A DNA stretch of 32,000 nt from Candidatus Fukatsuia endosymbiont of Tuberolachnus salignus (GTDB lineage: Bacteria > Pseudomonadota > Gammaproteobacteria > Enterobacterales > Enterobacteriaceae), in NCBI RefSeq assembly GCF_964030845.1, contig NZ_OZ034983.1, forward strand, positions 1,650,737 to 1,682,736. The letters are read 5' to 3'. Position numbers and translations under genes: made by a program. A model generated the notes under the pieces. It was not told where the DNA came from and ran no database searches. It worked only from the letters and a program-made list of their open reading frames with translations. The stretch's first letter is position 1; the number at the start of each line of letters is the position of its first letter. Positions 12,725 through 32,000 of the stretch are shown here, in pieces.

Positions 12725-13846
12725 ATGATCACAACAAAAAAAATCGCAACGAAAGAATGGCAGATCGCCAGTTCGCCTTTTACTCATCAGCAGCAGAATA
12801 CCAGCAATATTATGAAATGGGTGATGCTGGCCTGTATTCCAGGCATTTTTGCCCTGACTTATTTTTTTGGTTACGGCAGTCTGATCCAGGTACTACTCGC
12901 TATGCTTACAGCATGGTTAACGGAAGGTGTCGTACTTCATTTGCGAAAACCCAATTTACGAAAACGGCACTTACAACAACAAAATGGGCACAAACAACCG
13001 GTGATGGCCTGCTTAAAAGATAATTCAGCTCTATTGACCGGTTTATTACTGGGCGTTAGTCTGCCGCCTTTGGCACCTTGGTGGGTAGTGGTACTAGGTA
13101 CTCTGTTCGCTATTATCATTGCTAAACAATTGTACGGAGGCTTAGGACAAAATCTTTTTAACCCTGCGATGGTCGGTTATGTCGTGTTGCTGATTTCATT
13201 CCCTGTTCAAATGACAAATTGGCTGCCCTCTGTCGAATTGCAGGCCTCACCGATTAATTTTGTCGAGAACCTACAAGTTATTTTTACCGGTCAGACAAGT
13301 GAAAACAAAAATAGCCATCAACTGCGGCAGAGCTTTGACGGCGTCAGTCAAGCAACTCCGTTAGATACACTCAAAACTGAATTACGTAATCAACCGTTAG
13401 CCAGTGTACTACAACACCCTCTATTTGGCGGTATTCTCGCCGGTCTTGGCTGGCAATGGGTAAATTTGGGTTTTTTAGTCGGCGGTATATTTTTATTGTG
13501 GCGTAGAATTATTTATTGGCATATTCCGTTTAGTTTCCTGCTGGCACTGTGTCTTTGTGCTACTTATAGTCACTTTATTGCACCGGAGAAATTTGCCTCT
13601 GCCACTTTTCACCTATTTTCCGGTGCTACCATGCTAGGAGCATTCTTTATTGCTACCGATCCGGTCAGTGCTGCAACAACACCTCGTGGTCGTCTAATTT
13701 TTGGTGCGTTAACCGGTGTACTCGTCTGGCTAATTCGTGTCTTTGGTGGCTATCCTGATGGCGTCGCTTTTGCCGTATTACTGGCCAATATTACAGTGCC
13801 ACTTATCGATCACTATACTCAACCACGAGTTTATGGTCATCAGTAG
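12725..13846 (+). CDS. rsxD: Electron transport complex (Rsx/Rnf) subunit D
   Basis: ...[17 protein letters not shown]...[23 protein letters not shown]...[32 protein letters not shown]...[31 protein letters not shown] is collinear with E. coli RsxD. It has about a 15-aa insertion after the first TM region. Confidence 0.93.
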
Positions 13847-13874: not shown

Positions 13875-14023
13875 AGCCTATTCCAGTTCCAAATCTTTCT
13901 CGCTGTGCTCAGAAGAGGAAAAAATGGGCGGAAAAATGCGGTTTACTTTTTAAGTACAAAAAAGGGAGTAAATGAGTATTTTGATCAGCGAGCACAAGAG
14001 ATTTCGAACAGGTTCTAAGGAAG
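13875..14023. repeat. ERIC/MITE-like imperfect palindromic intergenic repeat, copy A (inside the rsxD-rsxG spacer)
   Basis: Shares ...AAAAGGGAGTAAATGAG(T/C)ATTTTGA...ATCAGCGAGCACAAGAGATTTCGAACAG(G/A)TT... with copy B (28905-29033). Its left arm CCAGTTCCAAATCTTTCTCGCTGTGCTCAGA matches copy C (CCTGTTCCAAATCTTCTTGAGCGACGCTCAGA). The left and right arms are imperfect inverted repeats. Confidence 0.7.
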
Positions 14024-14690: not shown

Positions 14691-15392
14691 ATGAGTAATA
14701 TTAGAGATTTGCTGGTTCAGGGGTTATGGAAAAATAACTCGGCGTTGGTGCAACTGCTTGGACTATGTCCGTTACTGGCGGTTTCATCCACTGCCACCAA
14801 TGCATTGGGGCTGGGTTTAGCAACAACCTTGGTTTTGTTTTGTACTAATACCATGGTCTCGGCTCTACGCCGTTGGATCCCTAACGAAATTCGTATCCCT
14901 ATTTATGTGATGATTATCGCTTCAGTCGTCAGCACAGTACAGATGCTAATTAACGCTTATACTTTTGAACTTTATCAATCGCTGGGGATATTTATTCCCC
15001 TGATCGTCACTAACTGTATTGTCATCGGCCGTGCGGAAGCCTATGCTTCAAAAAATCCGGTAGCACTTGCTGCCTTTGATGGTATATCGATGGGGTCGGG
15101 TGCAACGATGGTGCTATTGGCTTTAGGCGCATTGCGTGAAATTCTTGGCAACGGTACATTGTTTGATGGTGCAGATAGGCTACTAGGTGATTGGGCTAAA
15201 ATATTACGCATCGAAGTTATTCATCTGGATAGTCCCTTTTTATTAGCGATGCTGCCACCAGGTGCCTTTATTGGGCTTGGCTTGCTGCTGGCCGGCAAAT
15301 ATCTGATTGATGAAAAAATAAAAATACGTCAAACCAGAGCACGAATCATCACATCGCCTTTACAGAATGAACTCAGCGAAAAAATTTTATGA
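14691..15392 (+). CDS. rsxE: Electron transport complex (Rsx/Rnf) subunit E
   Basis: [49 protein letters not shown]... is nearly identical in pattern to E. coli RsxE. I prefer the ATG at 14691 to the GTG at 14679. Confidence 0.93.
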
Positions 15393-16030
15393 ATCAAAGA
15401 AAACGTATTGCGATCTTTACTCGTCTGCGCGACAACAATCCGCATCCAGCTACTGAATTAGCCTATGGTACAGTGTTTGAATTGTTGATTGCAGTACTAC
15501 TTTCAGCACAGGCAACCGATATTGGCGTCAACAAAGCCACGGCTAAGCTTTATCCGGTGGCCAATACACCGCAAGGTTTATTGACACTGGGTGTCGAAGG
15601 CGTGAAGAAATATATTAAAACCATTGGCTTATTCAATGTTAAAGCAGAAAATATTATAAAAACTTGTCGTTTATTACTGGAAAAACACCAGGGAGAAGTG
15701 CCAGAAGATCGGGAGGCACTGGAAGCATTACCGGGGGTAGGGCGCAAAACGGCAAACGTCGTGCTCAATACTGCTTTTGGCTGGTCGACTATCGCTGTTG
15801 ATACGCATATTTTTCGAGTATCTAACCGTACGGGATTGGCACCTGGGGCTAATGTCGATCAAGTCGAAGAAAAATTACTTAAAGTCGTGCCCACAGAATT
15901 TAAGCAAAACTGTCACCATTGGTTAATTCTGCATGGTCGCTACAGTTGTATTGCACGCAAACCCCGTTGTGGCTCCTGTCTTATCGAAGATTTATGCGAA
16001 TTTAAAGAAAAAAATTATCCTGCCAGTTAA
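15389..16030 (+). CDS. nth: Endonuclease III
   Basis: HhH-GPD motif [13 protein letters not shown] and the C-terminal 4Fe-4S cluster CX6CX2CX5C ([17 protein letters not shown]). ATGA overlap with rsxE as in E. coli. Confidence 0.96.
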
Positions 16031-16034
16031 GTTC

Positions 16035-17132
16035 TATACCCAAGTGAAATCAAGATGCAGGATTTAGCGCCTGGCAATTATCGTTTAAGCGAGATACCAG
16101 AGAACTTGCCATTTGTGGTAGCTTCACTTCAAAGAAGTTTAAGATATCGTTCTTAAAACTCTGTTTAGATGGGTAATATCTATTGTTTCGTGTTTGCTCA
16201 TTCATCACCTTCCACAATCGCTCTATCGGGTTTAGATTCGGGCTATACGGCGGAAGGTAATGAAGCTGGATATTCAACGTAAGCGCGGCGTCTTGCACAA
16301 GCTGTGAACGGTGATAGCCTGCACCCTCGAGGATCACATGTGCCGTTGTCGTGATGGGATAATGCGCGCGAATGGCAGACAGGAAGTGAACCACATTTTC
16401 GCTGTTAATCGTCTCATCATCACGGATTATGGGGTTAGCCACATTCTGGATGTTCAAGGCTCCCATGATATTCAACCGCGTTCTGCTCCCGGTGGTCTCT
16501 ATCGTTTTATCCTGGCCTTTTCGTATCCAGCCGTAGCTTATTTTGGTGGCTTGTGTCGGATGAACGGCATCAATAAACAGTATGGGGTCATTACCCGCGG
16601 CGTCTTTCAATTCGCTGTAGGTCTTTATAAATTGCTGCTGTTTCTCAACGGCAAATTTATGCGGAACACCTTTCGGCTTTTTATAGCTAAAGCCATGCTG
16701 CTTCAACCCTTTATACAGACCTGATACGGTAAAGGTGATGTTCCAGCGTCCAGCGATATACGCCACAATTTGGTGATTGTGGTGGTAGAGCGGCTGGGTG
16801 AGATGTTCAACCAGCGACGTGGTCTGTTCCGCATTGAGATAGCCATCGGAGCCGCCATTTTCAGGCTTGAGCTTGTTGAGTTTATGATAGTCTGTAAGGT
16901 GGCGCCGCACCGTGGTTTCATTAATGAGCTGTGAGTGAGCAATCATAGGGGGAGTCCAGCCGTCTGCGGACAACAAAACACACCGGATCCTGTCACAGAC
17001 ACGGCGGTCATGGCTTTGACGATGTTGGGCTTCGAGGGTAATTTTCTGGTCAGCAGTCAGCTCTATTTTCATGGCTATGAGCATGATCCTTATCGACTTC
17101 AAAATCAAGCATCTTCATTGATCACGGGTATA
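16035..17132 (-). mobile_element. IS630-family insertion sequence (about 1.1 kb) with terminal inverted repeats and TA flanks
   Basis: Left end TATACCCAAGTGAAATCAAGATGCAGGATTT versus the reverse complement of the right end TATACCCGTGATCAATGAAGATGCTTGATTT. That is about 23 of 31 matches, including the first 7 nt. TA dinucleotides at both junctions are consistent with IS630/Tc1 TA target duplication. It carries a single DDE transposase ORF. Confidence 0.85.
16050..17072 (-). CDS. IS630-family DDE transposase
   Basis: MKIELTADQKITLEAQHRQSHDRRVCDRIRCVLL... gives an N-terminal HTH. ...LFIDAVHP..., ...LPPYSPNLNPIERLW... are hallmark IS630/Tc1-mariner catalytic motifs. The likely start is the ATG at 17072. 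Confidence 0.9.
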   Translation of the reverse strand: MKIELTADQKITLEAQHRQSHDRRVCDRIRCVLLSADGWTPPMIAHSQLINETTVRRHLTDYHKLNKLKPENGGSDGYLNAEQTTSLVEHLTQPLYHHNHQIVAYIAGRWNITFTVSGLYKGLKQHGFSYKKPKGVPHKFAVEKQQQFIKTYSELKDAAGNDPILFIDAVHPTQATKISYGWIRKGQDKTIETTGSRTRLNIMGALNIQNVANPIIRDDETINSENVVHFLSAIRAHYPITTTAHVILEGAGYHRSQLVQDAALTLNIQLHYLPPYSPNLNPIERLWKVMNEQTRNNRYYPSKQSFKNDILNFFEVKLPQMASSLVSRLNDNCQALNPAS

Positions 17133-17476: not shown

Positions 17477-18945
17477 ATGTTTCAAAATAACCCGCTGCTG
17501 GCGCAGCTTAAAAAGCAATTACATATTCAAACCCCCCGCATTGAAGGGGTGGTTAAAGGTACGGAAAAAAGCTTTGGCTTCCTTGAAGTTGATGGGCAGA
17601 AAAGTTATTTCATCCCTCCACCACAGATGAAAAAAGTTATGCACGGTGACCGCGTGCTTGCCGTTTTACGTACCGATAAAAATCGTGAAATTGTTGAGCC
17701 AGAAAGCTTGGTAGAACCATTTTTATCTCGCTTTGTAGGGCGAATACAAAAAACAGACCAGTGCTTATTTATTATCCCTGATCATCCACTGTTAAGAGAT
17801 GCGATACCTTGTAGCAAAGCACCTGAACTCACTCACAATTTCCAGAACGGTGACTGGGCAGTAGCTGAATGACGATTACAGCAAGTGGCGCTTTGGGTGA
17901 TGACATCCAATTTTCTGTTGCTTGGATAGAATCAAAAGCCAAACTAGTTTATGACCAGATTTCTGATTGGTTGGAAAATCGGGGTGACTGGCAACCACAA
18001 AATAGCGAAATTACAGCACAGATCACACTGTTACAACGCGTCTGTAATGCACGTGATAAGTGGCGTCGACAACATGCTTTGGTGTTTAAAGATCACCCTG
18101 ACTACCGTTTTTCACTGGGTGAAAAAGGTGAGGTATTGGACATCATCGTTGAGCAACGTCGTATTGCCAACCGCATTGTTGAAGAGTGCATGATTGCTGC
18201 CAACATTTGTGCAGCAATCATGCTCCGCGCCGAGCTTGGTTTTGGTATCTATAATGTGCATGCTGGCTTTGATCCAGTCATGGTTGAACAAGTAAGCAAT
18301 GTACTTAAAACTTACGACATTGATACTGATCCCAAAGCTCTATTGACCCTGGAAGGTTTCTGCCAATTACGTCGTCATCTAGATACCTTACCGACACCGT
18401 TCCTTGATGGTCGTATCCGCCGTTTTCAGACCTTCGCAGAAATTAGTACTCAACTCAGCCCACATTTCGGATTAGGTCTGGAAGCTTATGCAACCTGGAC
18501 TTCGCCAATCCGTAAATATGGTGATATGGTTAATCATCGTCTGTTAAAAGCGATTATCAATCGTCAGCAGGTAAATAAGCCACAAGATGAGATCGGTATT
18601 CAATTGGCAGAACGCCGTCGTTTGAACCGAATGGCGGAACGTGATGTAGGAGATTGGCTGTATGCTCGTTATTTGCAACCACTGGCCGGTACTGATAGAC
18701 GGTTTTCTGCTGAGATTATTGACGTCACACGTGGGGGGGTGCGGGTACGTTTATTGGAAAACGGAGCAATGGCTTTTATTCCAGGATCATTCATTCATGC
18801 GGTACGCGACGAGTTGACTTGTAGCCAAGAAGCCGGAAGCGTCCAAATCAAAGGAAAAACGATTTTCCGCCAAAATGATAATATTGAAGTACAGCTTGTT
18901 GAAGTACGAATGGGAAGCCGTAATGTGATTGCACGTCCTATTTAA
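17477..18945 (+). pseudogene. rnb: Exoribonuclease II (rnb) pseudogene with an internal deletion and frame disruption
   Basis: ORF 17477-17872 matches RNase II residues about 1-131 ([59 protein letters not shown]...GDWAVAE) and then hits TGA. ORF 17869-18945, in another frame, resumes at ...[34 protein letters not shown]..., which aligns to E. coli ...[35 protein letters not shown].... About 150 aa are missing, including the start of the RNB domain. Confidence 0.85.
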
Positions 18946-19038
18946 ATTATCTGAAAAGTAAGGCACAGTCGCTGAGTTTTATGGAAATTGGTAATAGCGG
19001 TCAGCAGGTTGCCAATTTCTTGATTATTCCTGGTACAA

Positions 19039-19066
19039 TTTAACATAATATACATTATACGAATTA
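19039..19066 (-). other. dif: dif-type XerC/XerD recombination site, the candidate functional chromosomal dif and prophage end
   Basis: The + strand ATTTAACATAATATACATTATACGAATT has the reverse complement AATTCGTATAA-TGTATA-TTATGTTAAAT. E. coli dif is GGTGCGCATAA-TGTATA-TTATGTTAAAT. The XerD arm is 11/11, the central region 6/6 and the XerC arm 7/11, giving 21 contiguous identical nt. Confidence 0.8.
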
Positions 19067-19132
19067 ACGGAGTTTTGGTGTATTCTAGTGTCTGTCCTTG
19101 TCTGTATGTATAATCGAAAGTATGGGGAAATT

Positions 19133-19357
19133 ATGTTAGCTATCCAACTGCCTATTGAAATCGAAGACCGATTAGACCACCTTGCCGAAATGACTGGCAA
19201 AACAAAGAGATTTTACGTAGAAGAAGCTGTTCTGACTCATCTTGAAGATCTCGAAGATTATTATCAAGCTGCGGAAGTATCAGCACGAGTAAAACAAGGT
19301 AAAGAACAAGTTTATAGCGTCCAAGATGTAAGGAATGCACTTGGTCTGGAAGATTAA
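19133..19357 (+). CDS. Type II antitoxin, ribbon-helix-helix RelB/ParD-like
   Basis: MLAIQLPIEIEDRLDHLAEMTGKTKRFYVEEAVLTHLEDLEDYY... has the typical RHH antitoxin N-terminus. GGGGA RBS sits upstream of the ATG at 19133. It overlaps the downstream RelE-like gene. Confidence 0.8.
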   Translation: MLAIQLPIEIEDRLDHLAEMTGKTKRFYVEEAVLTHLEDLEDYYQAAEVSARVKQGKEQVYSVQDVRNALGLED

Positions 19358-19622
19358 TTATACCGAAAAAGCGCTCAGATCCTTGCGTAAAATGGATAAG
19401 CACAATGCCCGCCGCATCGTTGATTACCTCAATAAGCGCATAGCTCCACATGAAAATCCGAGGCTATTAGGTAAACAGCTTAAAGGTTCCCTTGGAGATT
19501 TTTGGCGTTATCGAATGGGTGATTATCGTATATTATGCGAAATCCATGATGATGAATTGGTGATCCTCGCGGCAACCATAGGTCATCGCCGAGAAGTTTA
19601 TGACTTAATATCCCCCAAATAA
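19335..19622 (+). CDS. Type II toxin, RelE/ParE family
   Basis: ...WKINYTEKALRSLRKMDKHNARRIVDYLNKRI...NPRLLGKQLKGSLGDFWRYRMGDYRILCEIHDDELVILAATIGHRREVY is the canonical RelE/ParE fold signature. It overlaps the antitoxin 3' end by 23 nt. The exact start codon is uncertain. Confidence 0.85.
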   Translation: MHLVWKINYTEKALRSLRKMDKHNARRIVDYLNKRIAPHENPRLLGKQLKGSLGDFWRYRMGDYRILCEIHDDELVILAATIGHRREVYDLISPK

Positions 19623-19674
19623 TCGTATGAAAGTTCTGCCCTGACGCGCCTAACGGCTTGTCCAACCCTTTACA

Positions 19675-19694
19675 CCAACAAGAAACCTTGTTGG
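19675..19694. terminator. Small hairpin between convergent relE-like and LuxR-like genes
   Basis: CCAACAAG-AAAC-CTTGTTGG has an 8-bp stem. Weak T-rich sequence follows on the + strand (GCGTTTTCATTTT). Confidence 0.35.
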
Positions 19695-19758
19695 CGCTCA
19701 GCGTTTTCATTTTGCTACCAAGTGCTGGCAATTTTTTCGTGTTCAAAATCTGTCATTA

Positions 19759-20055
19759 TTATGCTCCGTCGCCATTAAAACACCTTCGTTGTCTGCCTCC
19801 TTTCAATACAAACAACACCAGGCGAACATGAAATACGGTCAGCAACCCCGTCAATGAACAGGATTCAAATTTAATCTTGGCTTCCGCTATCGTCTGTTTA
19901 ACGACTTTATACGAAATTGAACGTAACACCGCGATCTCTTTTTGGGACACGCCGAGAGAAAAAAGCATCGCAGTTTCAAACTGAACCGGCGTTAACTCAG
20001 GAAACAAGTTGCGTAATTCAGGATATTGGGTAGGATCAAAAACAGCCATAATCAA
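19759..20055 (-). CDS. Small LuxR/GerE-type HTH transcriptional regulator (solo DNA-binding domain)
   Basis: ...LTPVQFETAMLFSLGVSQKEIAVLRSISYKVVKQTIAEAKIKF... matches the LuxR C-terminal HTH pattern (LTxRExEvL.L...G.S.KEIA..L.IS..TVK.H). There is no receiver or ligand domain. It is on the same strand as the phage morphogenesis genes. Confidence 0.6.
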   Translation of the reverse strand: MIMAVFDPTQYPELRNLFPELTPVQFETAMLFSLGVSQKEIAVLRSISYKVVKQTIAEAKIKFESCSLTGLLTVFHVRLVLFVLKGGRQRRCFNGDGA

Positions 20056-20117
20056 AGCCTCATTTTGGTTGCGGTCAGCTGCATGATCGGATTCACAGTC
20101 CGGTTATGCAGCGCTCA

Positions 20118-20145
20118 ATTGTACATAATACATAACATGATTTCA
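20118..20145 (-). other. Weak dif-like site (XerD-arm-like half) in the phage intergenic region
   Basis: The minus strand reads TGAAATCATGT-TATGTA-TTATGTACAAT. The XerD arm is 9/11 versus TTATGTTAAAT and the XerC arm only 4/11. It has the same orientation as the 19039-19066 site. Confidence 0.3.
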
Positions 20146-20149
20146 CATT

Positions 20150-20228
20150 GCCTTACTACTTGCATGCCTGCCGATCTTTCACGGCGGGCGTGCTCCTCGC
20201 CACGCTGCGGGGCCTGCCCGCCGCGCAG
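20150..20228 (-). other. GC-rich structured non-coding region downstream of the secretin gene (candidate packaging signal or origin)
   Basis: A strikingly GC-rich patch (CGGCGGGCGTGCTCCTCGCCACGCTGCGGGGCCTGCCCGCCGCGCAG) with complementary segments: CGGCGGGC 20182-20189 / GCCCGCCG 20216-20223, and alternatively GCCTGCCG 20166-20173. In Ff-type phages the region after gene IV holds the packaging hairpin and origins. Confidence 0.35.
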
Positions 20229-21326
20229 TTATCGTCTGACCTTTCTGATCTGTAACACTACCAGAATATCGGTCTTGTTCTGTTCACTGGAGACACCGGT
20301 TAACCAGCCTTGCGGTAAAAAACTGAATCCGGTATCTGCCCTGGTCGATTTTGATTCCGCCAACCCACCCAGCAAAATAATATCGCCATCAGCCACGGAA
20401 ACCTGGGTTGTCACTTGACGTTTAGTTAATGTCGGGCTGTTATTGACACCGGTAGCGGTTTTCACAAAATCAGAGAGTTGCTGATCAATGGCAAGATCGA
20501 TCACATCGGCACGAATAGCCGGTTTGACCTGCAATATCACCCCACTGGAACGGTACTCCACCGATTGTACTGGACGATTATCAGCATAGCTGACCTTACC
20601 GAGTACTGGAACATCTGCACCCACAGAAAATGAAGCCTGTGCACCATTTTTCACCCGTAATCGGGGTGAACTGACCACATGAAAACGGCTGTCAGTACGA
20701 AACAGCTCATACAGCGCATCGAGTGAACCGGTATTGATACGAATAAAATTATCAAAGCCCGCTGCCTGCCCTACCTGAAGATCCAGTTTACCGGACAGTA
20801 ATTTTGCCGCCAGTGCCAAACCTGACCCGTTACGCTCACGGGTTTGCACCTCAAACACATAGGCGGCGACAGTCACTTCTTCCGCAGCGGTGTCAGTTAA
20901 CGGCAGGACTGCCTGTAAACGACGCACATCCGCTTGAGTACCGTAATAAACCAGTACATCACCACTGCGGTTGATAAAATCAGAGGCCGTCCCTGCAATC
21001 GCGGTGTCCTCCGCCCGGTTTCCAGACGGCAACAGCGCATGACGCGCATTGAATTTTCCTGAATGTACAGCAATATTCATGTTTTTTAGATAACGCAGAA
21101 TAAAAGCACGTTCATCACTGTCCGGCGTGATACGGAACGTCACCACCCTTTTATCTTCCGCCAGTTCAGGCGATAGCATAAACGGTTTATCAAAGACATG
21201 AACATACAATAAATTTAATGCCTGTGATAACGGTACCGCATTGAGTTCAAAGGCAATGCCTTTTGCCTGCCCCGGCGTTGTACTCAGACACAACAGTAAA
21301 AGCAACCCTGCCGCTGCATTTTTCAT
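20229..21326 (-). CDS. Phage pIV-type secretin (outer-membrane export channel)
   Basis: Signal peptide MKNAAAGLLLLLCLSTTPGQA. The secretin C-domain motifs are ...VSSPRLRVKNGAQASFSVGADVPV... and ...NSPTLTKRQVTTQVSVADGDIILLGGL.... ATGA overlap with the upstream Zot/pI gene. Confidence 0.9.
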   Translation of the reverse strand: MKNAAAGLLLLLCLSTTPGQAKGIAFELNAVPLSQALNLLYVHVFDKPFMLSPELAEDKRVVTFRITPDSDERAFILRYLKNMNIAVHSGKFNARHALLPSGNRAEDTAIAGTASDFINRSGDVLVYYGTQADVRRLQAVLPLTDTAAEEVTVAAYVFEVQTRERNGSGLALAAKLLSGKLDLQVGQAAGFDNFIRINTGSLDALYELFRTDSRFHVVSSPRLRVKNGAQASFSVGADVPVLGKVSYADNRPVQSVEYRSSGVILQVKPAIRADVIDLAIDQQLSDFVKTATGVNNSPTLTKRQVTTQVSVADGDIILLGGLAESKSTRADTGFSFLPQGWLTGVSSEQNKTDILVVLQIRKVRR

Positions 21327-22384
21327 TTTATCCCTCCTGACCAGACCGTTACCCGCTCACCGTCAATCGTTCCGGTCATCATGACCCCCTCAAAAGCAAA
21401 CTGAGAGACAGGTTCGGCGCGTAAACGTCCGGCGTTATCAGCCAGTACTACCCAGATCTGCCCTTTTTTTGCCAGCTTGCCTGCCACGCGCCAACGAGCA
21501 GAAATAGCGGGTTTTTCAGGCGACGCAGGTACAACATGAAGTGACGTTGTCACTATGGGTGACGGGTTAACCGGTACTGACCGCATGGCCGGTTTATCTG
21601 AGGAAGCCTCTGAAGAAGCATACTGCGTGAAGAAATACACCAAAAACGTGACTGACACTCCTGCCAGTAACAGCATACCGATGACCACCCACCCTAGCCG
21701 TGCAGATGAAAACACATTCTGACGCTTATCCACGGTCAGTTCAGTGCCCTTCCCTCCTTCATAGGAGTGATAAAGCGCAAATATCGCCTTATCATAAGCA
21801 CACTGATAAGACGTAGTACGGGTCGACTTGAACAGCCTGATACCGGTAAACACATCGACACGGTAACGGGTTCTCAGCCCCAATGCCAGCAATTTTTGCA
21901 TACGGTACGTGGTTTCAATGCGATCTTTAATAAAACGGGGTAAATTCGTTACCGACTGATTGATCACTACCAAATCACAGCAAACCCCGGTTCTTTCATT
22001 GGTAAAATGCCGATGTTCAGCAATAAAAGACTGATGCTGCACCGGGATTTTTTTCTCCGTCGGCCAGATACGCCAAGCTTCATCAATACAAATCAAATCG
22101 CCTGACTGGCAAAATGTGTTACCACAGAGTGCGGCTTGTGCTGTTTTATAAGGAAAAAATGTCTCCTGCTGAACCTGTTCATTTTCAACGTAAATAATGT
22201 GACCCAGCGACGTCCGATCCGCTTTTTTAACACTGACACAATAATCAGCAATTTTATCGACACTGATACCGTAAATATTGGTCACTACCCGTCGTCCCGC
22301 CAGACAGGCGGGAATGATCACGCTGGCAACCACTTCATAAGATTTACCGCTACCCGGTACCCCGACATACGCTGAAATCGCCAT
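21323..22384 (-). CDS. Zot / pI-family phage assembly ATPase
   Basis: N-terminal Walker A MAISAYVGVPGSGKSYE, Walker B-like LICIDEAW, and a central TM (LGWVVIGMLLLAGVSVTFLVYFF). Typical of gene I/Zot proteins. Confidence 0.9.
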   Translation of the reverse strand: MAISAYVGVPGSGKSYEVVASVIIPACLAGRRVVTNIYGISVDKIADYCVSVKKADRTSLGHIIYVENEQVQQETFFPYKTAQAALCGNTFCQSGDLICIDEAWRIWPTEKKIPVQHQSFIAEHRHFTNERTGVCCDLVVINQSVTNLPRFIKDRIETTYRMQKLLALGLRTRYRVDVFTGIRLFKSTRTTSYQCAYDKAIFALYHSYEGGKGTELTVDKRQNVFSSARLGWVVIGMLLLAGVSVTFLVYFFTQYASSEASSDKPAMRSVPVNPSPIVTTSLHVVPASPEKPAISARWRVAGKLAKKGQIWVVLADNAGRLRAEPVSQFAFEGVMMTGTIDGERVTVWSGGIK

Positions 22385-22387
22385 AAC

Positions 22388-22675
22388 TTAGCCAATCACC
22401 GGAATACGGCGAATAATAAAACGCGTCAACATGGCAGACAGCACCATACCCATTCCTTGCGGCACCAGAAATAAATTAAGAAAATACCAGGCGCTATCCG
22501 GAAGTGCAGTAAACAACGACGGCAACTCGGTCGATTGCGGCAACCACTGCGCCATTTCCTTTACCAGTTCCTGTACCACAAAAAACAGGGCAAAAAAGAC
22601 GATAAATTTAATGACCAGGGTACGAAAAATAAACCCTAATAGCGCATTCAATGCTGACGTGACTAAACCAAACAT
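22388..22675 (-). CDS. pVI-like minor coat protein (DUF2523-like)
   Basis: 95-aa polytopic hydrophobic protein ending ...RFIIRRIPVIG. It lies between the pIII-like and pI genes, which is the canonical gene VI slot. Confidence 0.6.
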   Translation of the reverse strand: MFGLVTSALNALLGFIFRTLVIKFIVFFALFFVVQELVKEMAQWLPQSTELPSLFTALPDSAWYFLNLFLVPQGMGMVLSAMLTRFIIRRIPVIG

Positions 22676-22685
22676 ACCGTTTCTC

Positions 22686-24383
22686 CTAGGCGCTCAACAC
22701 CAACCGCAACGATAAAAATGCCCAGATAATCCCCGCGAATAAAGCAAAAAGCGCCCTGTTCTTCTCCAGTAATTCACAATGGCTGTTCATCACATGATGG
22801 CGTTCAAAAGCATCAAATTCAGCGACAGGACAAGCCACATTGCGGACAGGCAAGGTGAAATTTTTGATAAAAGGAAACAGCGTCAATAAAGGGGCAAGGA
22901 TCTGTTTACCATCAGGCGGGTTATCCAGTGAGGGTGAATCGATGCCAGGATGTGCCGTATCACTATGCTGTGCCGGTGAAACCGGCGGCGCATAAGGTTC
23001 AATTGCATGATCGGGTTGCGGAAAAAAATCAGGGTCTTCTGAAGGAAATGGCCTGACATCGCCACTCAAAGAAGGGTGTGAAGCAGGCGGCGGAAAATAA
23101 TTGATCTGCTGATAAAGCATCCCTTTGGTCAGTGGTACAGCCGCTTCATTCGCTGCCTGCTGAATTTCTTCAGCCGTCACAGGGTTTGAGGTTGAAAAAG
23201 GAATACCCTGATAATCGGCGCTGGAAGCCGCCTGTATTAAGGTATTATTCACCATATTGGCCGCAAGAGACGGGGCTAAAGGTTCCTGAATTTTATCAGG
23301 ATCTATCTGATGTACATAATCAAGCAAAACACGAGGAGCAATAGATTTTTCATAATTCGGTGTCAGGGATAAATTTCCAATTATATGATTACTTTGACTT
23401 ACACGCTTTTCAAATTTATCAGACTGCTCATTATAATAGATTTCATAATACTTATAGGCCACGTTAACACGGGGAAGAGAAGGATAACCAGAAAAAGACA
23501 CCCCTTCATCATCATAATTCGTCACAGAAAAAGAGATAATATCTTTAGATGCATAAGAGATCTTGTCCTGTTTTACTCTGTTATAAAAAACACAGGCGGC
23601 CAATGCGGTCAAATCATTACTTGAAAATTGAAAATCTGCGGTAAATTTATAATTATTAGTATCGGAATAATTGCGGCCAATATGAATATCAGCAGTACAA
23701 GGAGAATGATTAATATCATAAACTGGAGAAGGTAAAAACTTAAAGGGTTCTACTTTATCAGGAACAATAACAAATAAAGGTTTATGGGGTACAGCATTAA
23801 GGGTAACAATAGAGCCCTTATGATCAATAACAGAAGAACCATCAGGCATCTTTAAATAAAAATAACCATTATCGGCAAACTGACCCGAAGTAGTCGTCTG
23901 GATTTTTTCATTTTCCCCTTCCAGTTTCACTGCCAAATCAGAAGTATTCAGCAATCCCTTATTTAAAGCGAGTTCACCCCATGTACGATTGTGCAGACTT
24001 TCATTCAACCCCTGATTGACTACGGCATCAGGCGCTGATCCCTCTTCTGATAAAAACGCGGAAAGAGTAGCCTCAAGGGCTAAGCCTACCGCCATTGCCT
24101 GCGGTGTTCCACGCAAACCGGCAGTCAGGGCTCTTTTACTGAAAATACGTGACATTATTTTACCGAACCCAGACTGCTCCGCCGCCGCCGTTGCCGCATT
24201 AACCCGAAAATGGGTGTCATTAGCCGCCTGAACCGGTTTGCCAAAATGCGGGTCATTCGCGGCATGGACAGGTGGAACCGGTACCGGCCTCGATGCCGGT
24301 AATGCCTGAGCGGATAGCGTCAATGGAAAAAACAGAACCAACAGTATTACCCCTGCAAACCCTGAATCACTGCCCATGCGCAT
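22686..24383 (-). CDS. pIII-like adsorption / minor coat protein
   Basis: Signal peptide (..GFAGVILLVLFFPLTLSAQA), a Pro-rich linker (PPPASHPS...FPSEDPDFFPQPDH..PYAPPVSPA) and a C-terminal membrane anchor (ALFALFAGIIWAFLSLRLVLSA). It lies after the coat gene. The start could be 24395 (GTG), 24383 or 24377. Confidence 0.65.
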   Translation of the reverse strand: MRMGSDSGFAGVILLVLFFPLTLSAQALPASRPVPVPPVHAANDPHFGKPVQAANDTHFRVNAATAAAEQSGFGKIMSRIFSKRALTAGLRGTPQAMAVGLALEATLSAFLSEEGSAPDAVVNQGLNESLHNRTWGELALNKGLLNTSDLAVKLEGENEKIQTTTSGQFADNGYFYLKMPDGSSVIDHKGSIVTLNAVPHKPLFVIVPDKVEPFKFLPSPVYDINHSPCTADIHIGRNYSDTNNYKFTADFQFSSNDLTALAACVFYNRVKQDKISYASKDIISFSVTNYDDEGVSFSGYPSLPRVNVAYKYYEIYYNEQSDKFEKRVSQSNHIIGNLSLTPNYEKSIAPRVLLDYVHQIDPDKIQEPLAPSLAANMVNNTLIQAASSADYQGIPFSTSNPVTAEEIQQAANEAAVPLTKGMLYQQINYFPPPASHPSLSGDVRPFPSEDPDFFPQPDHAIEPYAPPVSPAQHSDTAHPGIDSPSLDNPPDGKQILAPLLTLFPFIKNFTLPVRNVACPVAEFDAFERHHVMNSHCELLEKNRALFALFAGIIWAFLSLRLVLSA

Positions 24384-24433
24384 AGCAGACCCCACATAAA
24401 AAACACTAAATTCCAGTATTCACTCATAGCCAC

Positions 24434-24453
24434 AAAAAGGGGCATGGTGCCCC
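24434..24453 (-). terminator. Rho-independent terminator immediately after the major coat gene
   Basis: The minus strand reads GGGGCA-CCA-TGCCCC followed by TTTTT. It starts 8 nt after the coat stop codon. This is analogous to the strong terminator after gene VIII in Ff phages. Confidence 0.7.
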
Positions 24454-24461
24454 TCCTCCTG

Positions 24462-24686
24462 TTAGGCACTGCGTACCATGCGCAATATCCACTTCACCCC
24501 CGCAAAACCGGCATATAGGGTGATCAAAGTGGCAGCTACCGCCATAATACCGGTCAATACTTTGGAAAAATCGACCGCATTAGTGAGTGTGGTTAAATCC
24601 GCCGCATCAGCCAGTGCCAGCGAACTGAACAGGCACAGAGTGAACAAAACGAGCATTTTGGTATAAAGTGATTTCATTAATTGCAT
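24462..24686 (-). CDS. Major coat protein (pVIII-like)
   Basis: MQLMKSLYTKMLVLFTLCLFSSLALA|DAADLTTLTNAVDFSKVLTGIMAVAATLITLYAGFAGVKWILRMVRSA. This gives a signal peptide, then about 48 aa of mature protein with an acidic N-terminus, hydrophobic core and basic C-terminus. GGAGAGG sits 5 nt upstream of the ATG at 24686. Confidence 0.8.
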   Translation of the reverse strand: MQLMKSLYTKMLVLFTLCLFSSLALADAADLTTLTNAVDFSKVLTGIMAVAATLITLYAGFAGVKWILRMVRSA

Positions 24687-24747
24687 GATTACCTCTCCAT
24701 TAAATAAAACGTTATTAAATAAGTTAAAAGCTTCACAGGTTAATTTA

Positions 24748-24972
24748 TTAAGCATTTTTTACCATATTTAAAATCAGCCCGATTCCTTTAGAAAATAAAT
24801 AAAGAAAAATGACTGAGGTAAAAGCCAGCCCCCAAAATAGCCCTGCTTTGGCGTAATCCATTTCAGAGACTGGCTGATAGGGCGACTCAATAGACAAGGT
24901 GATTGCCTGACAATTTTTCTCCGATGGAACATCACAAATTTGTCCCGTAATAACCCCTGGCTGAATGGCCAT
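24748..24972 (-). CDS. Small phage membrane protein (unassigned, possibly a minor coat or assembly protein)
   Basis: 74 aa with one C-terminal TM (GLFWGLAFTSVIFLYLFSKGIGLIL). It sits between the ssb-like and coat genes. Confidence 0.45.
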   Translation of the reverse strand: MAIQPGVITGQICDVPSEKNCQAITLSIESPYQPVSEMDYAKAGLFWGLAFTSVIFLYLFSKGIGLILNMVKNA

Positions 24973-24978
24973 AGCGTA

Positions 24979-25308
24979 TTACCCTTTAGCAACTTCTTGC
25001 ACAGAAAGCACTTCCTGTGTTTCACCCGAGCGTCCGTTGAAATCCCATTTATTAATCCGGAATTTAATTTCAACCTGTTTTGATTTCAGCGACTTTAATT
25101 GATTATGAAGACCGGTTAAAACGAGAGCAGGAGGAACAATAAATTTGTCCGTACGGGTATCCGTTCCGCCAAAATCATTCATCACTTCAGATTGCAGCCC
25201 TAAAATATATTTTATTTTGTCCTGTTTTTTCCCTTCCTTATCCATAAATGATGAAGGTTGTGCATTAACACCTAGCAAGGTACCACGATAAAGATAACCG
25301 GTAAGCAT
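24979..25308 (-). CDS. Putative ssDNA-binding protein (gene V / RstB positional analogue)
   Basis: 109 aa, beta-rich and Lys-rich, directly downstream of the replication gene. The assignment rests on position and size only. Confidence 0.4.
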   Translation of the reverse strand: MLTGYLYRGTLLGVNAQPSSFMDKEGKKQDKIKYILGLQSEVMNDFGGTDTRTDKFIVPPALVLTGLHNQLKSLKSKQVEIKFRINKWDFNGRSGETQEVLSVQEVAKG

Positions 25309-25327
25309 GTAATCTCCTTGAAATAAA

Positions 25328-26608
25328 TTAAGCGACTTTTATGGTATTCATCTGTTTTTCAAATAAGCTGACGGGCTCGACATACCAGTCTGGGCGCTGA
25401 TTGGAAAAATCGACCTGAATAATTTGCATTAACGGAACAATATTATTTTTATCCGCGGTTAGATTTTGTAATTGTGCTTTACTGAACCCAACAGCAAGCA
25501 AATCACTGACATGCCGCCAAAAAGTGGCTCTATCCATATTTTGTAAGACGCCGTCATACCCTTCATTGACTAATCGGCGGTAGAAACCAAATAACCGTTG
25601 GGCTTTGGCGTAAGTCACATTGCCTTTTGGCGTGATTCTAAAATAACGATTTTTCAATATTTCATAAATGTTATCATCGGAATAAATATTCATATTCTTA
25701 CCTTCAAGAGCAGAAAGCACGTCTTTAAACGACGCATGCCATAAATCGGCTATTAATGACTTTTCATCAGATTCATAACTCAGTTGGTAATTTACCGCCT
25801 GAAAAAAATTAAGAGGCATCCCAAAATTATTGATAAAACGCTGTTTTAACCGGCCTTCAAAACGGACAAGTCCTTTGCTAAATTTCTGTAATTTTGGATC
25901 TTCCATCACCTGTAATTGATTACGTAATGAAAGGTTACGTGGATTTCGTGCTATCGCGCTTTTTATCAATTGGCACTGACGCATCAGCTCAGGATGTTTT
26001 AAATAAGCAATGAGTATGCGGTGGCGGCTGCCTTCATTCCACATGCAGGTTGTCTCCCACTCTTGAGCACGGGTGCATTTAGTTTGTCCATTGCTAACAT
26101 TACGCAAGGCAGAGATCACTTGTTCCGCCTGTTTTTCTGTGGGAATACGTGCAGAATAAGTAACATCAATGCGATCAATCACGGTCGCGCTAATGTTCAG
26201 CATTTCATACAGCTTTGATGCGGAAACCGCAAGATTAACCAACAATTCCATACCACATAATGCTAAATCAGTACTGCCAAACACATTATGACCTTGCAAC
26301 AGTTTGGCAGGAGAGGCTTTTATTTCCACACAAGGATGACGATTGCAGGTACCGCAATAAATTTTCATCGCCAGGCCGCTGTAATGAGTCGGTAAAGAAT
26401 CAAACGGATGATTTAACCCTTTCACGGTCAAATCGCCATCAATATCGAATTCTACGGAACGGGCAGAAAGTATTAAGCCTGATTTTTTAGCCACTGCTTC
26501 AAGATCAATATAGATCCCTCCTTGTTCATCGGCAGATTTAGTTATGATCAGATGCTCTTCTTTAAATGGGATAGAAAATTTGATTAAATCAATCATCCTT
26601 GGTGCCAT
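25328..26608 (-). CDS. Rolling-circle replication initiation protein, phage gene II/X (CRI) family
   Basis: ...VEIKASPAKLLQGHNVFGS...DRIDVTY... are motifs characteristic of filamentous-phage gpII/RstA-type initiators. It is the first gene of the phage operon and divergent from the repressor. The start could instead be the ATG at 26596. Confidence 0.85.
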   Translation of the reverse strand: MAPRMIDLIKFSIPFKEEHLIITKSADEQGGIYIDLEAVAKKSGLILSARSVEFDIDGDLTVKGLNHPFDSLPTHYSGLAMKIYCGTCNRHPCVEIKASPAKLLQGHNVFGSTDLALCGMELLVNLAVSASKLYEMLNISATVIDRIDVTYSARIPTEKQAEQVISALRNVSNGQTKCTRAQEWETTCMWNEGSRHRILIAYLKHPELMRQCQLIKSAIARNPRNLSLRNQLQVMEDPKLQKFSKGLVRFEGRLKQRFINNFGMPLNFFQAVNYQLSYESDEKSLIADLWHASFKDVLSALEGKNMNIYSDDNIYEILKNRYFRITPKGNVTYAKAQRLFGFYRRLVNEGYDGVLQNMDRATFWRHVSDLLAVGFSKAQLQNLTADKNNIVPLMQIIQVDFSNQRPDWYVEPVSLFEKQMNTIKVA

Positions 26609-26612
26609 ATAA

Positions 26613-26687
26613 GTATCAATATGAAATCAAATATACAACCTAAAAATCATATATGCAACAAATCACTGTAAAATAATCATATATGAA
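26613..26687. promoter_or_regulatory. Divergent promoter/operator region with three phased repeats
   Basis: ATCAATATGAAA (26614-26625), ATCATATATGCAA (26645-26657) and ATCATATATGAAA (26675-26687). Centre-to-centre spacing is 31 and 30 bp. The last two contain the 8-bp palindrome CATATATG. The region lies between rep and the XRE repressor. Confidence 0.5.
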
Positions 26688-26702
26688 ATAGGAGTAATAA
26701 AT

Positions 26703-27032
26703 ATGAGACATATAGGCGACAATATAAAGCGCATAAGAGAGGCAATGAAAATCAGTCAACAAGAACTTGCTGAAAGAAGTGAAGTATCTAAGGCACAAAT
26801 TTCAAGATTAGAAACTGGTTCGCAAAATAATCCACAAATACAAACACTTGTGGCAATTTCAACGGCTCTTGGGATTACTTTAGAAGAAACGGTCTTCGGT
26901 GAAGAATCTGCAAGCAATGCTTACCTGTCAGAAGCCCTGACATCTCTGCCAAAACAGGACCAAATGGCGATTAAGAAGCTGATAAAAATGTGGGTATTAA
27001 CGTCACAAGCAGAGAAAATGTCATGCGAGTGA
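26703..27032 (+). CDS. XRE-family HTH repressor (RstR/cI-like phage regulator)
   Basis: IGDNIKRIREAMKISQQELAERSEVSKAQISRLETGSQNNPQIQTLVAISTALGITLEE is a canonical HTH_XRE domain. GGAG RBS is present. It is divergent from the rep gene. Confidence 0.85.
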   Translation: MRHIGDNIKRIREAMKISQQELAERSEVSKAQISRLETGSQNNPQIQTLVAISTALGITLEETVFGEESASNAYLSEALTSLPKQDQMAIKKLIKMWVLTSQAEKMSCE

Positions 27033-27050
27033 GGTTTCAATTTGAAACAA

Positions 27051-27077
27051 GAGTCCACTATTAAAGATAGTGGACTC
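27051..27077. terminator. Hairpin downstream of the XRE gene
   Basis: GAGTCCACTAT-TAAAG-ATAGTGGACTC has a perfect 11-bp stem. No T tract follows on the + strand, so termination efficiency is uncertain. Confidence 0.4.
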
Positions 27078-27186
27078 ACCCCTCCACCCTAACCATTACA
27101 CAACGCGTGACCAATACGGAGCACAAGAAAAATGCGGTATAGTCATGTCACCTGTTTGAATGAAACTGATAAAGGTAAGTCAGGGT

Positions 27187-27429
27187 ATGCCAGTCATCTT
27201 GCGATTTAAGGGCTATACGTTTTTTTTCTATTCGAATGAAGGCAACCCACGGGAATCCCTCCATATTCACGTTAGAAATGCGGGAAATGAAGCCAAATTC
27301 TGGTTGATGCCAATGGTACAACTCGCCCGTAACGACGGCTTTAACGCTCGCGAGCTTAAAGAACTCAACGATGTGATAGAACAACATAAAAAATTATTTG
27401 AGGAGACTTGGAATGAATATTTCAGCTAA
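27187..27429 (+). CDS. DUF4160 family protein
   Basis: MPVILRFKGYTFFFYSNEGNPRESLHIHVRNAGNEAKFWL... is the hallmark DUF4160 N-terminus (M.....G..F.FYS.E...P.H.HV). I take the start at the ATG at 27187. Confidence 0.8.
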   Translation: MPVILRFKGYTFFFYSNEGNPRESLHIHVRNAGNEAKFWLMPMVQLARNDGFNARELKELNDVIEQHKKLFEETWNEYFS

Positions 27430-27661
27430 GAAAGTACGATTTGATGAATTTAATCTGTGGGTTGAGTTGAATGATGCCCGTATATTAGGCGTGCCTTTAG
27501 CCTGGTTTCCCAAGTTATTACATGCCAGCGAAGCAGAACGCAATCAGTTTGAATTGAGTGCCAGAGGCATACACTGGGATAGCCTGGATGAAGATATTTC
27601 CATTGAAGGGCTACTAAATGGAAGAAGAGATGTGACTCATCGCCCTCACCATGCTGCCTGA
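27413..27661 (+). CDS. DUF2442 family protein
   Basis: MNISAKKVRFDEFNLWVELNDARILGVPLAWFPKLLHASEAERNQFELSARGIHWDSLDEDISIEGLL is the typical DUF2442 pattern (..W.P.L..A....R......G.G..W..LDEDIS.E.LL). AGGAG sits 7 nt upstream. It overlaps the DUF4160 gene by 17 nt. Confidence 0.8.
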   Translation: MNISAKKVRFDEFNLWVELNDARILGVPLAWFPKLLHASEAERNQFELSARGIHWDSLDEDISIEGLLNGRRDVTHRPHHAA

Positions 27662-27665
27662 TTTT

Positions 27666-27693
27666 GATGCGCATAATGCACGTTATGCTAAAG
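27666..27693 (+). other. dif-like XerC/XerD site (inverted partner of the attP hairpin)
   Basis: GATGCGCATAA-TGCACG-TTATGCTAAAG versus E. coli dif. The XerC arm is 10/11, the XerD arm 9/11 and the central region 3/6. Its orientation is opposite to the sites at 19039 and 27728. Confidence 0.7.
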
Positions 27694-27727
27694 AAGCCGC
27701 TGCGACCTGCGATTTTCGCAGCGGCTT
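27694..27727 (+). terminator. Perfect 11-bp stem-loop with T tract, serving as the DUF4160/DUF2442 terminator and the apical stem of the putative attP hairpin
   Basis: AAGCCGCTGCG (27694-27704) / CGCAGCGGCTT (27717-27727) with a 12-nt loop. T residues at 27726-27730 form the tail. Confidence 0.7.
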
Positions 27728-27758
27728 TTTCAACATAACGTTATACCTTATACGCATT
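27728..27758 (-). other. dif-like site with a 9-nt central region, the putative hybrid junction (chromosomal XerC arm plus phage core)
   Basis: The minus strand reads AATGCGTATAA-GGTATAACG-TTATGTTGAAA. The XerC arm is 8/11 versus E. coli, and 10/11 versus the arm at 19056-19066. The XerD arm is 9/11. It has the same orientation as the 19039-19066 site. Confidence 0.55.
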
Positions 27759-28904: not shown

Positions 28905-29033
28905 GACAAAGAAAAAATGAGCGAAAAAGCGTAGTTTATTCTTTGTCTACAACAAAAAGGGAGTAAATGAGCATTTTGAGCTCTTTTTTGACGAAGTATC
29001 AGCGAGCACAAGAGATTTCGAACAGATTATTAG
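28905..29033. repeat. ERIC/MITE-like intergenic repeat, copy B (downstream of tus, left arm missing or replaced)
   Basis: GAAAAAATGAGCGAAAAAGCGTAGTTTA...AAAAGGGAGTAAATGAGCATTTTGAGCTCTTTTTTGACGAAGTATCAGCGAGCACAAGAGATTTCGAACAGATTATTAGAAG aligns with copies A and C. Confidence 0.65.
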
Positions 29034-31883: not shown

Positions 31884-32000
31884 CTCTAAGAACCTGTTCC
31901 AAATCTTCTTGAGCGACGCTCAGACGAAGAAGAAACTCACGAAAAAACGCAGTTTACAGAGAGTCACTGAGCATTTTGAGCGCGTTTTTGACGAATTACT
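31884..32000. repeat. ERIC/MITE-like intergenic repeat, copy C (downstream of manA, cut by the window end)
   Basis: GCTCTAAGAACCTGTTCCAAATCTTCTTGAGCGACGCTCAGACGAAGAAGAAACTCACGAAAAAACGCAGTTTACAGAGAGTCACTGAGCATTTTGAGCGCGTTTTTGACGAA. Its left arm is the inverted complement of the right arm seen in copies A and B (CTTAGAACCTGTTCGAAATCTCTTGTGCTCGCTGAT...). Confidence 0.65.

Follow-up and report, generated by a model that had tools for sequence, protein, structure and literature searches.

A single-copy filamentous prophage at the dif locus of an aphid endosymbiont, most likely immobilised and at the onset of decay

Between the genes rnb and tus, the genome of Candidatus Fukatsuia endosymbiont of Tuberolachnus carries an 8.7-kb block of phage-like genes (19038–27758; all prophage coordinates follow the numbering of the window, by which we mean the whole 32,000-nt stretch of DNA analyzed). 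This locus raises the question of what the block is, how it entered the chromosome, and whether it can still move. An initial annotation made from the sequence had described it as a complete filamentous prophage with intact open reading frames (ORFs), inserted at the chromosome dimer resolution site (dif) and possibly active or recently acquired. Our analysis indicates that the block is, in all probability, a single-copy temperate inovirus prophage in the Fukatsuia terminus that entered by the route of CTX-type elements, and that it is now most likely immobilised and starting to decay.

The genes support the identification as a filamentous prophage. An ORF map combined with profile searches places all core genes on the minus strand in the order of the Ff phages (f1, M13 and fd), and every core assignment is supported by homology (Table 1). 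The genes named in the initial annotation are all where it had put them, and so is the strong terminator after the coat gene. Its coat, pIII and initiator assignments also hold, with two limits: the support for pIII covers the C-terminal part only, and the coat scores 22.2 bits against Pfam Phage_Coat_B, slightly below the cut-off of 23.5. The initiator is 53–54% identical to gpII of IKe and the Ff phages over 96–97% of its length, 68% identical to that of a metagenome phage (L086), and 52% identical to that of an Arsenophonus prophage. Of the 80 positions with at least 95% conservation in a set of 119 homologues, it retains 79. The sole departure is residue 127, a serine where 98% of these homologues have proline.

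The remaining core proteins match their relatives to varying degrees. The g5-like protein and the 74-aa membrane protein are 33 and 40% identical, respectively, to the YpfPhi region of Yersinia pestis locus L002, and the latter is 49–58% identical to the relatives described below. Read from its translation, the coat protein has a signal peptide that ends in ALA, and it is acidic at the N-terminus, hydrophobic in its core and basic at the C-terminus. Translation probably starts at the ATG at 24686 or 24677, and the protein is 76% identical to the coats of E. coli prophage L082 and of L086. The pIII-like protein has a conserved C-terminal anchor domain and is 32–51% identical to its relatives in the C-terminal part only; its N-terminal part is divergent, and the receptor-binding part gave no match. 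Zot/pI shares 57–63% identity with its relatives over the full length, and the XRE repressor is 43% identical to the XRE protein at the same position in the Arsenophonus prophage. No integrase or recombinase family was matched by any ORF of the element in the profile searches. Judged from this gene content, the element is of Inoviridae type (Tubulavirales): it combines an initiator and origin, a coat protein, and the ordered set of pI/Zot, pVI and pIII.

The ends of the element suggest how it was inserted. The initial annotation had placed them at 19039 and 27758, and both positions coincide with dif-like sites. The site at the 3' end, attL, has the perfect central region and XerD arm of E. 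coli dif, and its four mismatches all lie in the XerC arm. By our own arithmetic, a match of this quality would be expected about 1e-6 times per 64 kb of random sequence. The dif of ten Rahnella loci has the same strand relative to tus as attL and is situated a few kb upstream of that gene. Y. pestis has a piece of YpfPhi, a phage described in the literature as dif-integrated (PMC4266046), about 9.5 kb upstream of tus. Given these positions relative to tus, attL occupies the place and orientation expected of the host dif. In the E. coli relatives, a perfect dif occupies the corresponding 3' (gene-IV) end, and AATGCGTATAATGTATATTATGTTAAAT, the empty site predicted here, shares 27 of its 28 positions with a Rahnella dif.

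The 5' end contains two inverted sites, A (attR) and B. Paired on the virion strand, they give an XerC-arm stem, an asymmetric unpaired centre, an XerD-arm stem and a terminal stem. This hairpin folds with −31.4 kcal/mol (z −6.1), and none of 200 shuffled sequences folds as well. The same A/B pair is found in the free metagenome phage L086 and between the tandem copies of E. coli prophages L082 and L083 and of Arsenophonus prophage L091. The window, L082, L083 and L086 have the same XerD-like arm in site A, TTATGTTGAAA, and the window, L082 and L086 also agree in the arm of site B, TTATGCTAAAG. The central region of site A measures 10–11 nt in L082, L083 and L086, and 9–12 nt overall. An RNAalifold consensus keeps the whole hairpin, with one compensatory change from A-T to G-C in the terminal stem. 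CTX-type elements are known to integrate through a folded single-stranded attP by an XerC-only strand exchange that is completed by replication and is irreversible, and YpfPhi and CUS-1 are listed among these Xer-exploiting elements (PMC4246890; also PMC4266046). As far as sequence can tell, the prophage ends have this CTX-type att anatomy, as in CTXphi, YpfPhi and CUS-1.

We propose the following course of events. The origin core lies on the minus strand and is near-identical to those of f1 and IKe, and the virion strand is therefore the minus strand of the window. In circular single-stranded virion DNA of this polarity, sites A and B would pair to a forked hairpin that mimics a XerC/XerD site with an unpaired centre. 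Host XerC would then exchange one strand pair with the chromosomal dif, and replication would fix the insertion. Such an insertion is predicted to leave hybrid site A together with site B at the 5' end (27666–27758) and a rebuilt dif at the 3' end (19038–19065), which now most likely serves chromosome dimer resolution. On the CTX model, the XerC arm at 27748–27758 would be derived from the host and that at 19055–19065 from the phage; the central region and XerD arm of attL would stem from the host, and the 9-nt centre and XerD-like arm of attR from the phage. Since sites A and B no longer pair once they are double-stranded, the integrated element could not excise. CTX-type prophages indeed cannot do so and need tandem copies or a helper element to make phage genomes (PMC4246890). 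As for the modules, replication of Ff/IKe type is combined with coat and assembly functions of the type found in YpfPhi and the E. coli dif prophages, including an own pI/Zot and pIV, and the XRE repressor faces the initiator gene across repeated operator-like sites.

Whether the prophage is still functional depends largely on its secretin. The initial annotation had all ORFs looking intact, and the secretin ORF is indeed open, but this gene is not intact: the protein has 365 aa versus 404–424 aa in the closest full-length relatives. Alignments reveal a clean in-frame deletion of 43 aa (129 bp) after residue 88 (DNA ~21062), between NIAVH and SGKFN. Among 120 homologue clusters, this segment is missing only in the Fukatsuia secretin and in one 277-aa fragment. 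The deletion costs eight near-invariant residues. All 64 conserved positions outside it are retained and the secretin domain is intact; because the remainder of the protein keeps every conserved position, we consider the lesion to be recent. In a sequence search against solved structures, the alignment with the phage f1 secretin (7ofh) was limited to the C-terminal half, and for this reason we mapped the deletion on an AlphaFold model of the closest homologue (80% identical; block-mean pLDDT 82–93 over the deleted stretch). In the model, the missing residues 89–131 include the end of strand 85–90, strand 93–98, which is the last strand of N0, and strand 109–113 and helix 120–128, which are β1 and α1 of N3. 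The Fukatsuia secretin is thereby predicted to lack the N0/N3 junction, with neither the N0 nor the N3 domain complete. We also considered the short secretin as a natural variant. This idea was ruled out by the secretins of Dulem virus 52 and Inovirus D_HF5_61, which lack a different, poorly conserved linker and keep the segment deleted here.

The second observation that bears on the present state is copy number. The window contains one copy of the prophage, directly flanked by the host genes rnb and tus, and no tandem array. A tandem state is usual for CTX-type elements, although it is not a strict criterion. From a single copy, rolling-circle replication would run into host DNA without a second origin at which to terminate. 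Based on the secretin deletion together with the single copy, we judge the prophage to be immobilised and probably export-defective, with decay probably beginning. The earlier suggestion that it is active or recently acquired can be divided accordingly. Recent acquisition fits the retention of conserved positions in the initiator (79/80) and in the secretin outside the deletion (64/64), and was most likely recent enough that all genes other than the secretin gene look intact. Activity is weakened by the deletion and by the single copy.

Several points weigh against an immobilised single copy. A tandem array could have been collapsed in the assembly. The in-frame deletion is no proof of lost function; a working short variant or a very recent lesion would also fit, and a host secretin or a helper phage could replace the damaged protein. 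The integration route is open to similar doubts. No empty site from a sister strain and no Tus closer than 73% was found in genome or protein collections; since such a site is missing and the two XerC arms differ by one base, the origins of these arms are read from the model. The XerC arm of the rebuilt dif, AATTCGTATAA, has four mismatches to the enterobacterial consensus, and the activity of this dif is a prediction. One alternative, suggested in the initial annotation, is a fully active prophage, which would replicate, leave the cell through the shortened secretin or through one of the host, and be able to spread between symbiont cells. Ten of the 11 core features look intact, the initiator and the secretin outside its deletion are as conserved as described above, the origin, repressor, operator-like repeats and terminator are all present, and the deletion is in frame. 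We nevertheless regard full activity as unlikely, since the deletion is unique among the 120 homologue clusters and removes the conserved structure at the N0/N3 junction, and since only one copy is present in the window where CTX-type prophages need tandem copies or a helper for phage genomes (PMC4246890). The broader claim that the prophage is, or recently was, a transmissible inovirus circulating among insect endosymbionts appears more doubtful still; we leave it open because a tandem homologue with a 77% identical regulator occurs in Arsenophonus and because the shortened secretin might work.

A different route of entry, in which a double-stranded attP recombines with dif as in VGJ-type phages and XerCD could excise the element again, seems very improbable. 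Such phages are common (PMC4246890), and site B alone (27666–27693) does resemble a 28-bp dif-like site with a 6-bp centre. But there are two inverted sites, whose pairing, asymmetric bulge and terminal stem are conserved across the relatives; the 9–12-nt centre of site A is unfit as a double-stranded Xer substrate; and site B is opposite in orientation to the flanking dif, so that it is not the product of a simple double-strand exchange with attL. The element could instead be a domesticated remnant, no longer a phage and kept for symbiont use, either for its toxin–antitoxin cargo or for a role of Zot and secretin in host interaction. A single immobilised copy in an otherwise decaying genome, next to an rnb pseudogene and an adjoining IS630-family element, would suit this idea, and the cargo genes could stabilise the element. 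Yet the replication, coat and repressor genes are preserved as well as zot, the one damaged gene is that of the secretin, and no relative shows a reduced conserved subset, the copy in Symbiopectobacterium being simply degraded. Domestication therefore has the slimmest prospects of all these alternatives, and we favor a prophage that arrived by the CTX-type route and was then trapped.

Table 1. Features of the Fukatsuia prophage and its borders (window numbering)
Feature	Position	Strand	Basis or sequence
Core phage genes
gpII-type rolling-circle initiator, 426 aa	25328–26608	−	Pfam Phage_CRI 7e-63; G2P_X_C 5e-28
g5-like single-stranded DNA binding protein, 109 aa	24979–25308	−	Pfam Putative_G5P 3.3e-10
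74-aa membrane protein, position of Ff genes VII/IX	24748–24972	−	phrog_3679 1.2e-16
pVIII-like major coat	24462–24686 (ORF open from 24755)	−	phrog_2186 8e-20
Intrinsic terminator between coat gene and gene III	24396–24461	−	GGGGCA-CCA-UGCCCC then UUUUU
pIII-like adsorption protein, up to 569 aa	22686–24395	−	phrog_3942 5e-48, residues 361–569 only
pVI-like minor coat protein, 95 aa	22388–22675	−	Pfam DUF2523 1.1e-17; phrog_974 4e-24
pI/Zot assembly ATPase, 353 aa	21323–22384	−	Pfam Zot 7e-25; phrog_197 2.8e-80
pIV-type secretin, 365 aa	20229–21326	−	Pfam Secretin 8.7e-25; phrog_1012 'protein IV of M13' 1e-108
XRE/cI-type repressor, 109 aa, divergent from initiator	26703–27032	+	Pfam HTH_3 5e-16; Phage_CI_repr 2.4e-7
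Ends
attL, predicted rebuilt dif at 3' end	19038–19065	−	AATTCGTATAA-TGTATA-TTATGTTAAAT
attP site B, second strand of attP hairpin	27666–27693	+	GATGCGCATAA-TGCACG-TTATGCTAAAG
G+C-rich terminal stem-loop of attP hairpin	27694–27727	−	Folding
attR, predicted hybrid site A	27728–27758	−	AATGCGTATAA-GGTATAACG-TTATGTTGAAA; central region 9 nt
Expected tandem or replicative-form junction	19055–19065 joined to 27747 downward	virion	AATTCGTATAA followed by GGTATAACGTTATGTTGAAA
rnb 3' flank at prophage border			…TTCCTGGTACA
Control region, origin, hairpin and cargo
Divergent control region, 94-bp initiator–XRE spacer	26609–26702		Operator-like repeats
Ff/IKe-type plus-strand origin core, directly after XRE stop codon	27033–27088	−	Includes nick-site hairpin GAGTCCACTATCTTTAATAGTGGACTCTTGTT
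G+C-rich hairpin right after secretin stop codon	20180–20225	−	DNA fold −17.5 kcal/mol, z −1.9
relB/relE type II toxin–antitoxin cargo, antisense to phage genes	relB ~19133–19357; relE 19335–19622	+	NCBIfam RelB-like antitoxin 3.8e-28, RelE/StbE toxin 2.1e-10; Pfam ParE_toxin 1.6e-15
Small helix-turn-helix protein, 98 aa, downstream of secretin gene	19759–20055	−	Weak sigma-70 region 4 / phrog_3282 matches only
DUF4160/DUF2442 two-gene cassette, antisense to phage genes	27160–27661	+	DUF4160 1.9e-20; DUF2442 4.4e-21
Host flank
IS630-family (DDE_3) transposase gene and adjoining rnb pseudogene	16050–17108 and 17477–18945	− and +	Profile search

The operator repeats reported in the initial annotation are present in the initiator–XRE spacer: the 10-mer ATCATATATG occurs in two exact copies 30 bp apart, at 26646 and 26676, where 0.07 would be expected over the whole window, and degenerate copies lie at 26628 and 26709. 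We infer that these repeats are operators of the repressor. The origin core is near-identical to those of f1 and IKe, and their alignment has 36 invariant columns; a 21-mer of it is identical in L086 and has near-matches in three further relatives (L088, L089 and L090). The hairpin behind the secretin gene recurs at the same position in L086 and in Arsenophonus L093 (z −4.1 in L093), and the IKe annotation lists a 'morphogenetic signal' stem-loop in the same place after gene IV. This hairpin is a candidate packaging signal or terminator.

The cargo of the prophage fills two variable slots next to the att sites, the same slots that hold accessory ORFs in YpfPhi, CUS-1 and UPphi (UPphi: PMC7307601). 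The small helix-turn-helix protein is 77% identical to the ORF at the same position in the Arsenophonus nilaparvatae prophage. The relBE genes and the DUF4160/DUF2442 cassette are absent from all fetched relatives, whose DUF slot holds other ORFs. Between 19066 and 27665 we found no further dif-like site, just two chance-level matches in the operator region and in the coat gene. Since no such site lies inside the element, we assign relBE, the small helix-turn-helix gene and DUF4160/DUF2442 to the phage genome, and we dropped the idea of a nested or second Xer element that would split relBE or the DUF pair from the phage. A palindromic stretch at 20107–20140 was also considered as a dif site and rejected, as it does not fit dif. 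PADLOC returned no defence-system match for the cargo genes and only generic helix-turn-helix matches for XRE.

Relatives of the prophage were fetched via E. coli genomes, the protein collection and GenBank phages. CTXphi has no secretin of its own and uses that of its host, and on this premise the initial annotation had called the combination of a phage-encoded secretin with a CTX-like integration module noteworthy. Both parts of the combination are present in the Fukatsuia prophage. However, the pairing is already known from YpfPhi/CUS-1 (PMC4246890, PMC10354491) and UPphi (PMC7307601), and every still-complete relative that we fetched, from E. coli, Arsenophonus and metagenomes, has its own secretin, CTX-like att sites and the same core gene order. 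The phage thus belongs to a known type that is widespread. In the 8-kb metagenome phage L086/L087 (Zot 62%, secretin 67–74% by local / global alignment), the stretch from gene IV to the reversed accessory ORFs contains site A, the loop and site B. In E. coli, prophages L082 and L083 are arranged in tandem, with the A/B pair where copies meet and a perfect dif at the gene-IV end, and the A. nilaparvatae prophage (CP158507) is likewise in tandem with the same A/B pair. The Fukatsuia secretin is 74% identical to those of the E. coli prophages, and homologues of the same lineage are annotated in Serratia, Klebsiella, Salmonella, Xenorhabdus, Arsenophonus, Yersinia, Citrobacter, Providencia, Hafnia and Pasteurella.

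Other insect symbionts contain related elements in various conditions. In the Arsenophonus tandem pair (L091/L092; CP158507, 827933–857547), the zot stretch of L091 has no called gene in either copy, the second-copy initiator has no called gene either, and the first-copy pIII is split; in L093, from another assembly, Zot is shortened to 285 aa. Given these missing or split gene calls and the shortened Zot, decay of the Arsenophonus prophage seems to be under way too. A degraded relative in Candidatus Symbiopectobacterium endolongispinus (L088; JAFJYB010000008, 9100–13600) retains an initiator with 65% identity, a near-matching origin core, a site-B-like dif site, and fragments of the 74-aa protein, the coat and pIII; zot, pVI and the secretin gene are absent from this locus. 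The locus may illustrate how the same process proceeds further in a different insect symbiont. Two free circular genomes, Dulem virus 52 (L089) and Inovirus D_HF5_61 from saliva (L090), have the same set of modules, with initiators 49–50% and secretins 50–55% identical. They contain an inverted dif-like pair with XerC arms ATTTCGCATAA or AATTCGCATAA, which we take to resemble the dif of Pasteurellaceae; this likeness would suggest that the att arms track the dif of the host. Megablast with the full element as query found nothing among 50,697 phage records, and IMG/VR scans with the initiator and with pIII gave no close relative. Exact look-up of the pIII ORF and the annotated initiator returned no contig, and that of Tus returned one 1.3-kb read-assembly contig only.

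As the initial annotation had noted, rnb is decayed: profile searches recover it as a pseudogene in two pieces. One ORF carries the OB domain, and the other begins only at position 98 of the RNB profile; because of this late start about 100 residues are missing besides the frame break. The tus gene is intact. The G+C content is 0.49–0.50 in zot and pIV, 0.38–0.39 in the initiator and XRE genes, and mostly 0.41–0.45 in the host flanks. The contrast between the two pairs of phage genes fits a mosaic phage of foreign composition. The endonuclease III gene nth (15389–16030, plus strand) follows rsxD, rsxG and rsxE and lies 3 kb from the prophage site. Endonuclease III is a host cofactor that promotes CTXphi integration (PMC3442271, PMC4266046); the closeness of nth to the prophage most likely reflects just the conserved rsx–nth synteny near the terminus. 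At 11362–13846, an OmpA-family gene on the opposite strand precedes rsxD in place of rsxA, rsxB and rsxC, and the rsx operon seems to be truncated or rearranged there. A short intergenic repeat occurs in three copies (13918–14014, 28911–29028 and 31958–31998) with identities of 71% (~100–118 bp) and 85% (41 bp), one of them in the gap from tus to fumC. The repeat could be a miniature element or a small dispersed repeat of the Fukatsuia genome. The window contains three KOPS motifs where 1.3 are expected, too few for a test of polarity.

The Fukatsuia prophage leaves the known mechanism of integration unchanged. What is modestly new is the aphid-endosymbiont host, the cargo, and the joining of an Ff/IKe replication module to structural modules of the YpfPhi lineage. 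We found no literature linking Fukatsuia with filamentous phages, nor a report of filamentous phages for aphid endosymbionts. The locus provides a cleanly delimited CTX-type, dif-integrating inovirus in such a host, and it marks the chromosomal dif and terminus. As the locus also demonstrates, the Ff/IKe replication module of gpII and origin is in circulation among integrating phages, in keeping with a published proposal that IKe and I2-2 arose from integrating ancestors (PMC7307601). Taken together, its single copy and its secretin deletion offer a datable snapshot of prophage trapping and early decay in a shrinking genome. If the prophage were transmissible after all, no active filamentous phage would have preceded it in an aphid symbiont, and it might serve as a natural means of DNA delivery into bacteria that are difficult to culture.

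The prophage was compared with several known systems. Its nearest relatives, in E. coli (CP082080, CP122712), L086/L087 and Arsenophonus (CP158507), share the gene order, the attP hairpin with identical XerD-like arms and the 3' dif, with identities of 63–74% for the secretin, 57–63% for Zot and 57–64% for pVI. L086 (68%) and Arsenophonus (52%) also share the gpII-type initiator, whereas the E. coli copies use other initiator families. These relatives differ in their full-length secretins of 404–424 aa, in the tandem state of the E. coli and Arsenophonus copies, and in lacking relBE and DUF4160/DUF2442. YpfPhi of Y. pestis and CUS-1 of E. coli K1 are similar in size (~8.7 kb), in their location at dif with dif rebuilt at the 3' end, as predicted here, in two XerC/XerD sites of opposite orientation in the phage genome, in a repressor gene that diverges from the replication gene, in having their own Zot and secretin (for YpfPhi, PMC10354491), and in the accessory ORFs at both extremities. 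The coat, 74-aa and g5 proteins are 33–44% identical to the YpfPhi fragment in Y. pestis L002. In contrast to the gpII/Phage_CRI initiator and Ff-like origin of the Fukatsuia prophage, YpfPhi has another kind of initiator; it also carries other cargo and usually occurs in 2–4 tandem copies rather than one. With CTXphi of Vibrio cholerae the prophage shares the predicted folding of a single-stranded attP made of two inverted dif-like sites, the absence of an own integrase, a presumably irreversible insertion and an rstR-like repressor divergent from the replication gene, while the initiator family and the cargo (cholera toxin) of CTXphi are different.

The Ff phages (f1/M13/fd) and IKe, of the genera Inovirus and Lineavirus, resemble the Fukatsuia element in the initiator (53–54%), the near-identical origin core, the gene order, the terminator after gene VIII and the hairpin after gene IV. 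They are episomal and have no att site or repressor, in contrast to the integrated element with its dif-like ends; no convincing dif-like pair was found in IKe or f1. Tblastn searches with the coat, pIII, pVI and pI against IKe and f1 gave no match, and the secretin is 28–30% identical to theirs over the C-terminal two-thirds only. The element lacks the structural homology and the episomal state of these genera and is not a member of them. UPphi phages are dif-integrated enterobacterial inoviruses with all Ff core genes and with accessory genes next to dif (Shapiro & Putonti 2020, PMC7307601). They combine IKe-like structural genes (~70% amino acid identity) with YpfPhi-like genes II and V; gene II of UPphi is more than 85% identical to that of YpfPhi and less than 15% similar to those of IKe and M13 (PMC7307601). 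The Fukatsuia prophage lies outside the UPphi group and is the reverse mosaic, with gene II and an origin like those of IKe and the Ff phages and with structural genes of the YpfPhi lineage.

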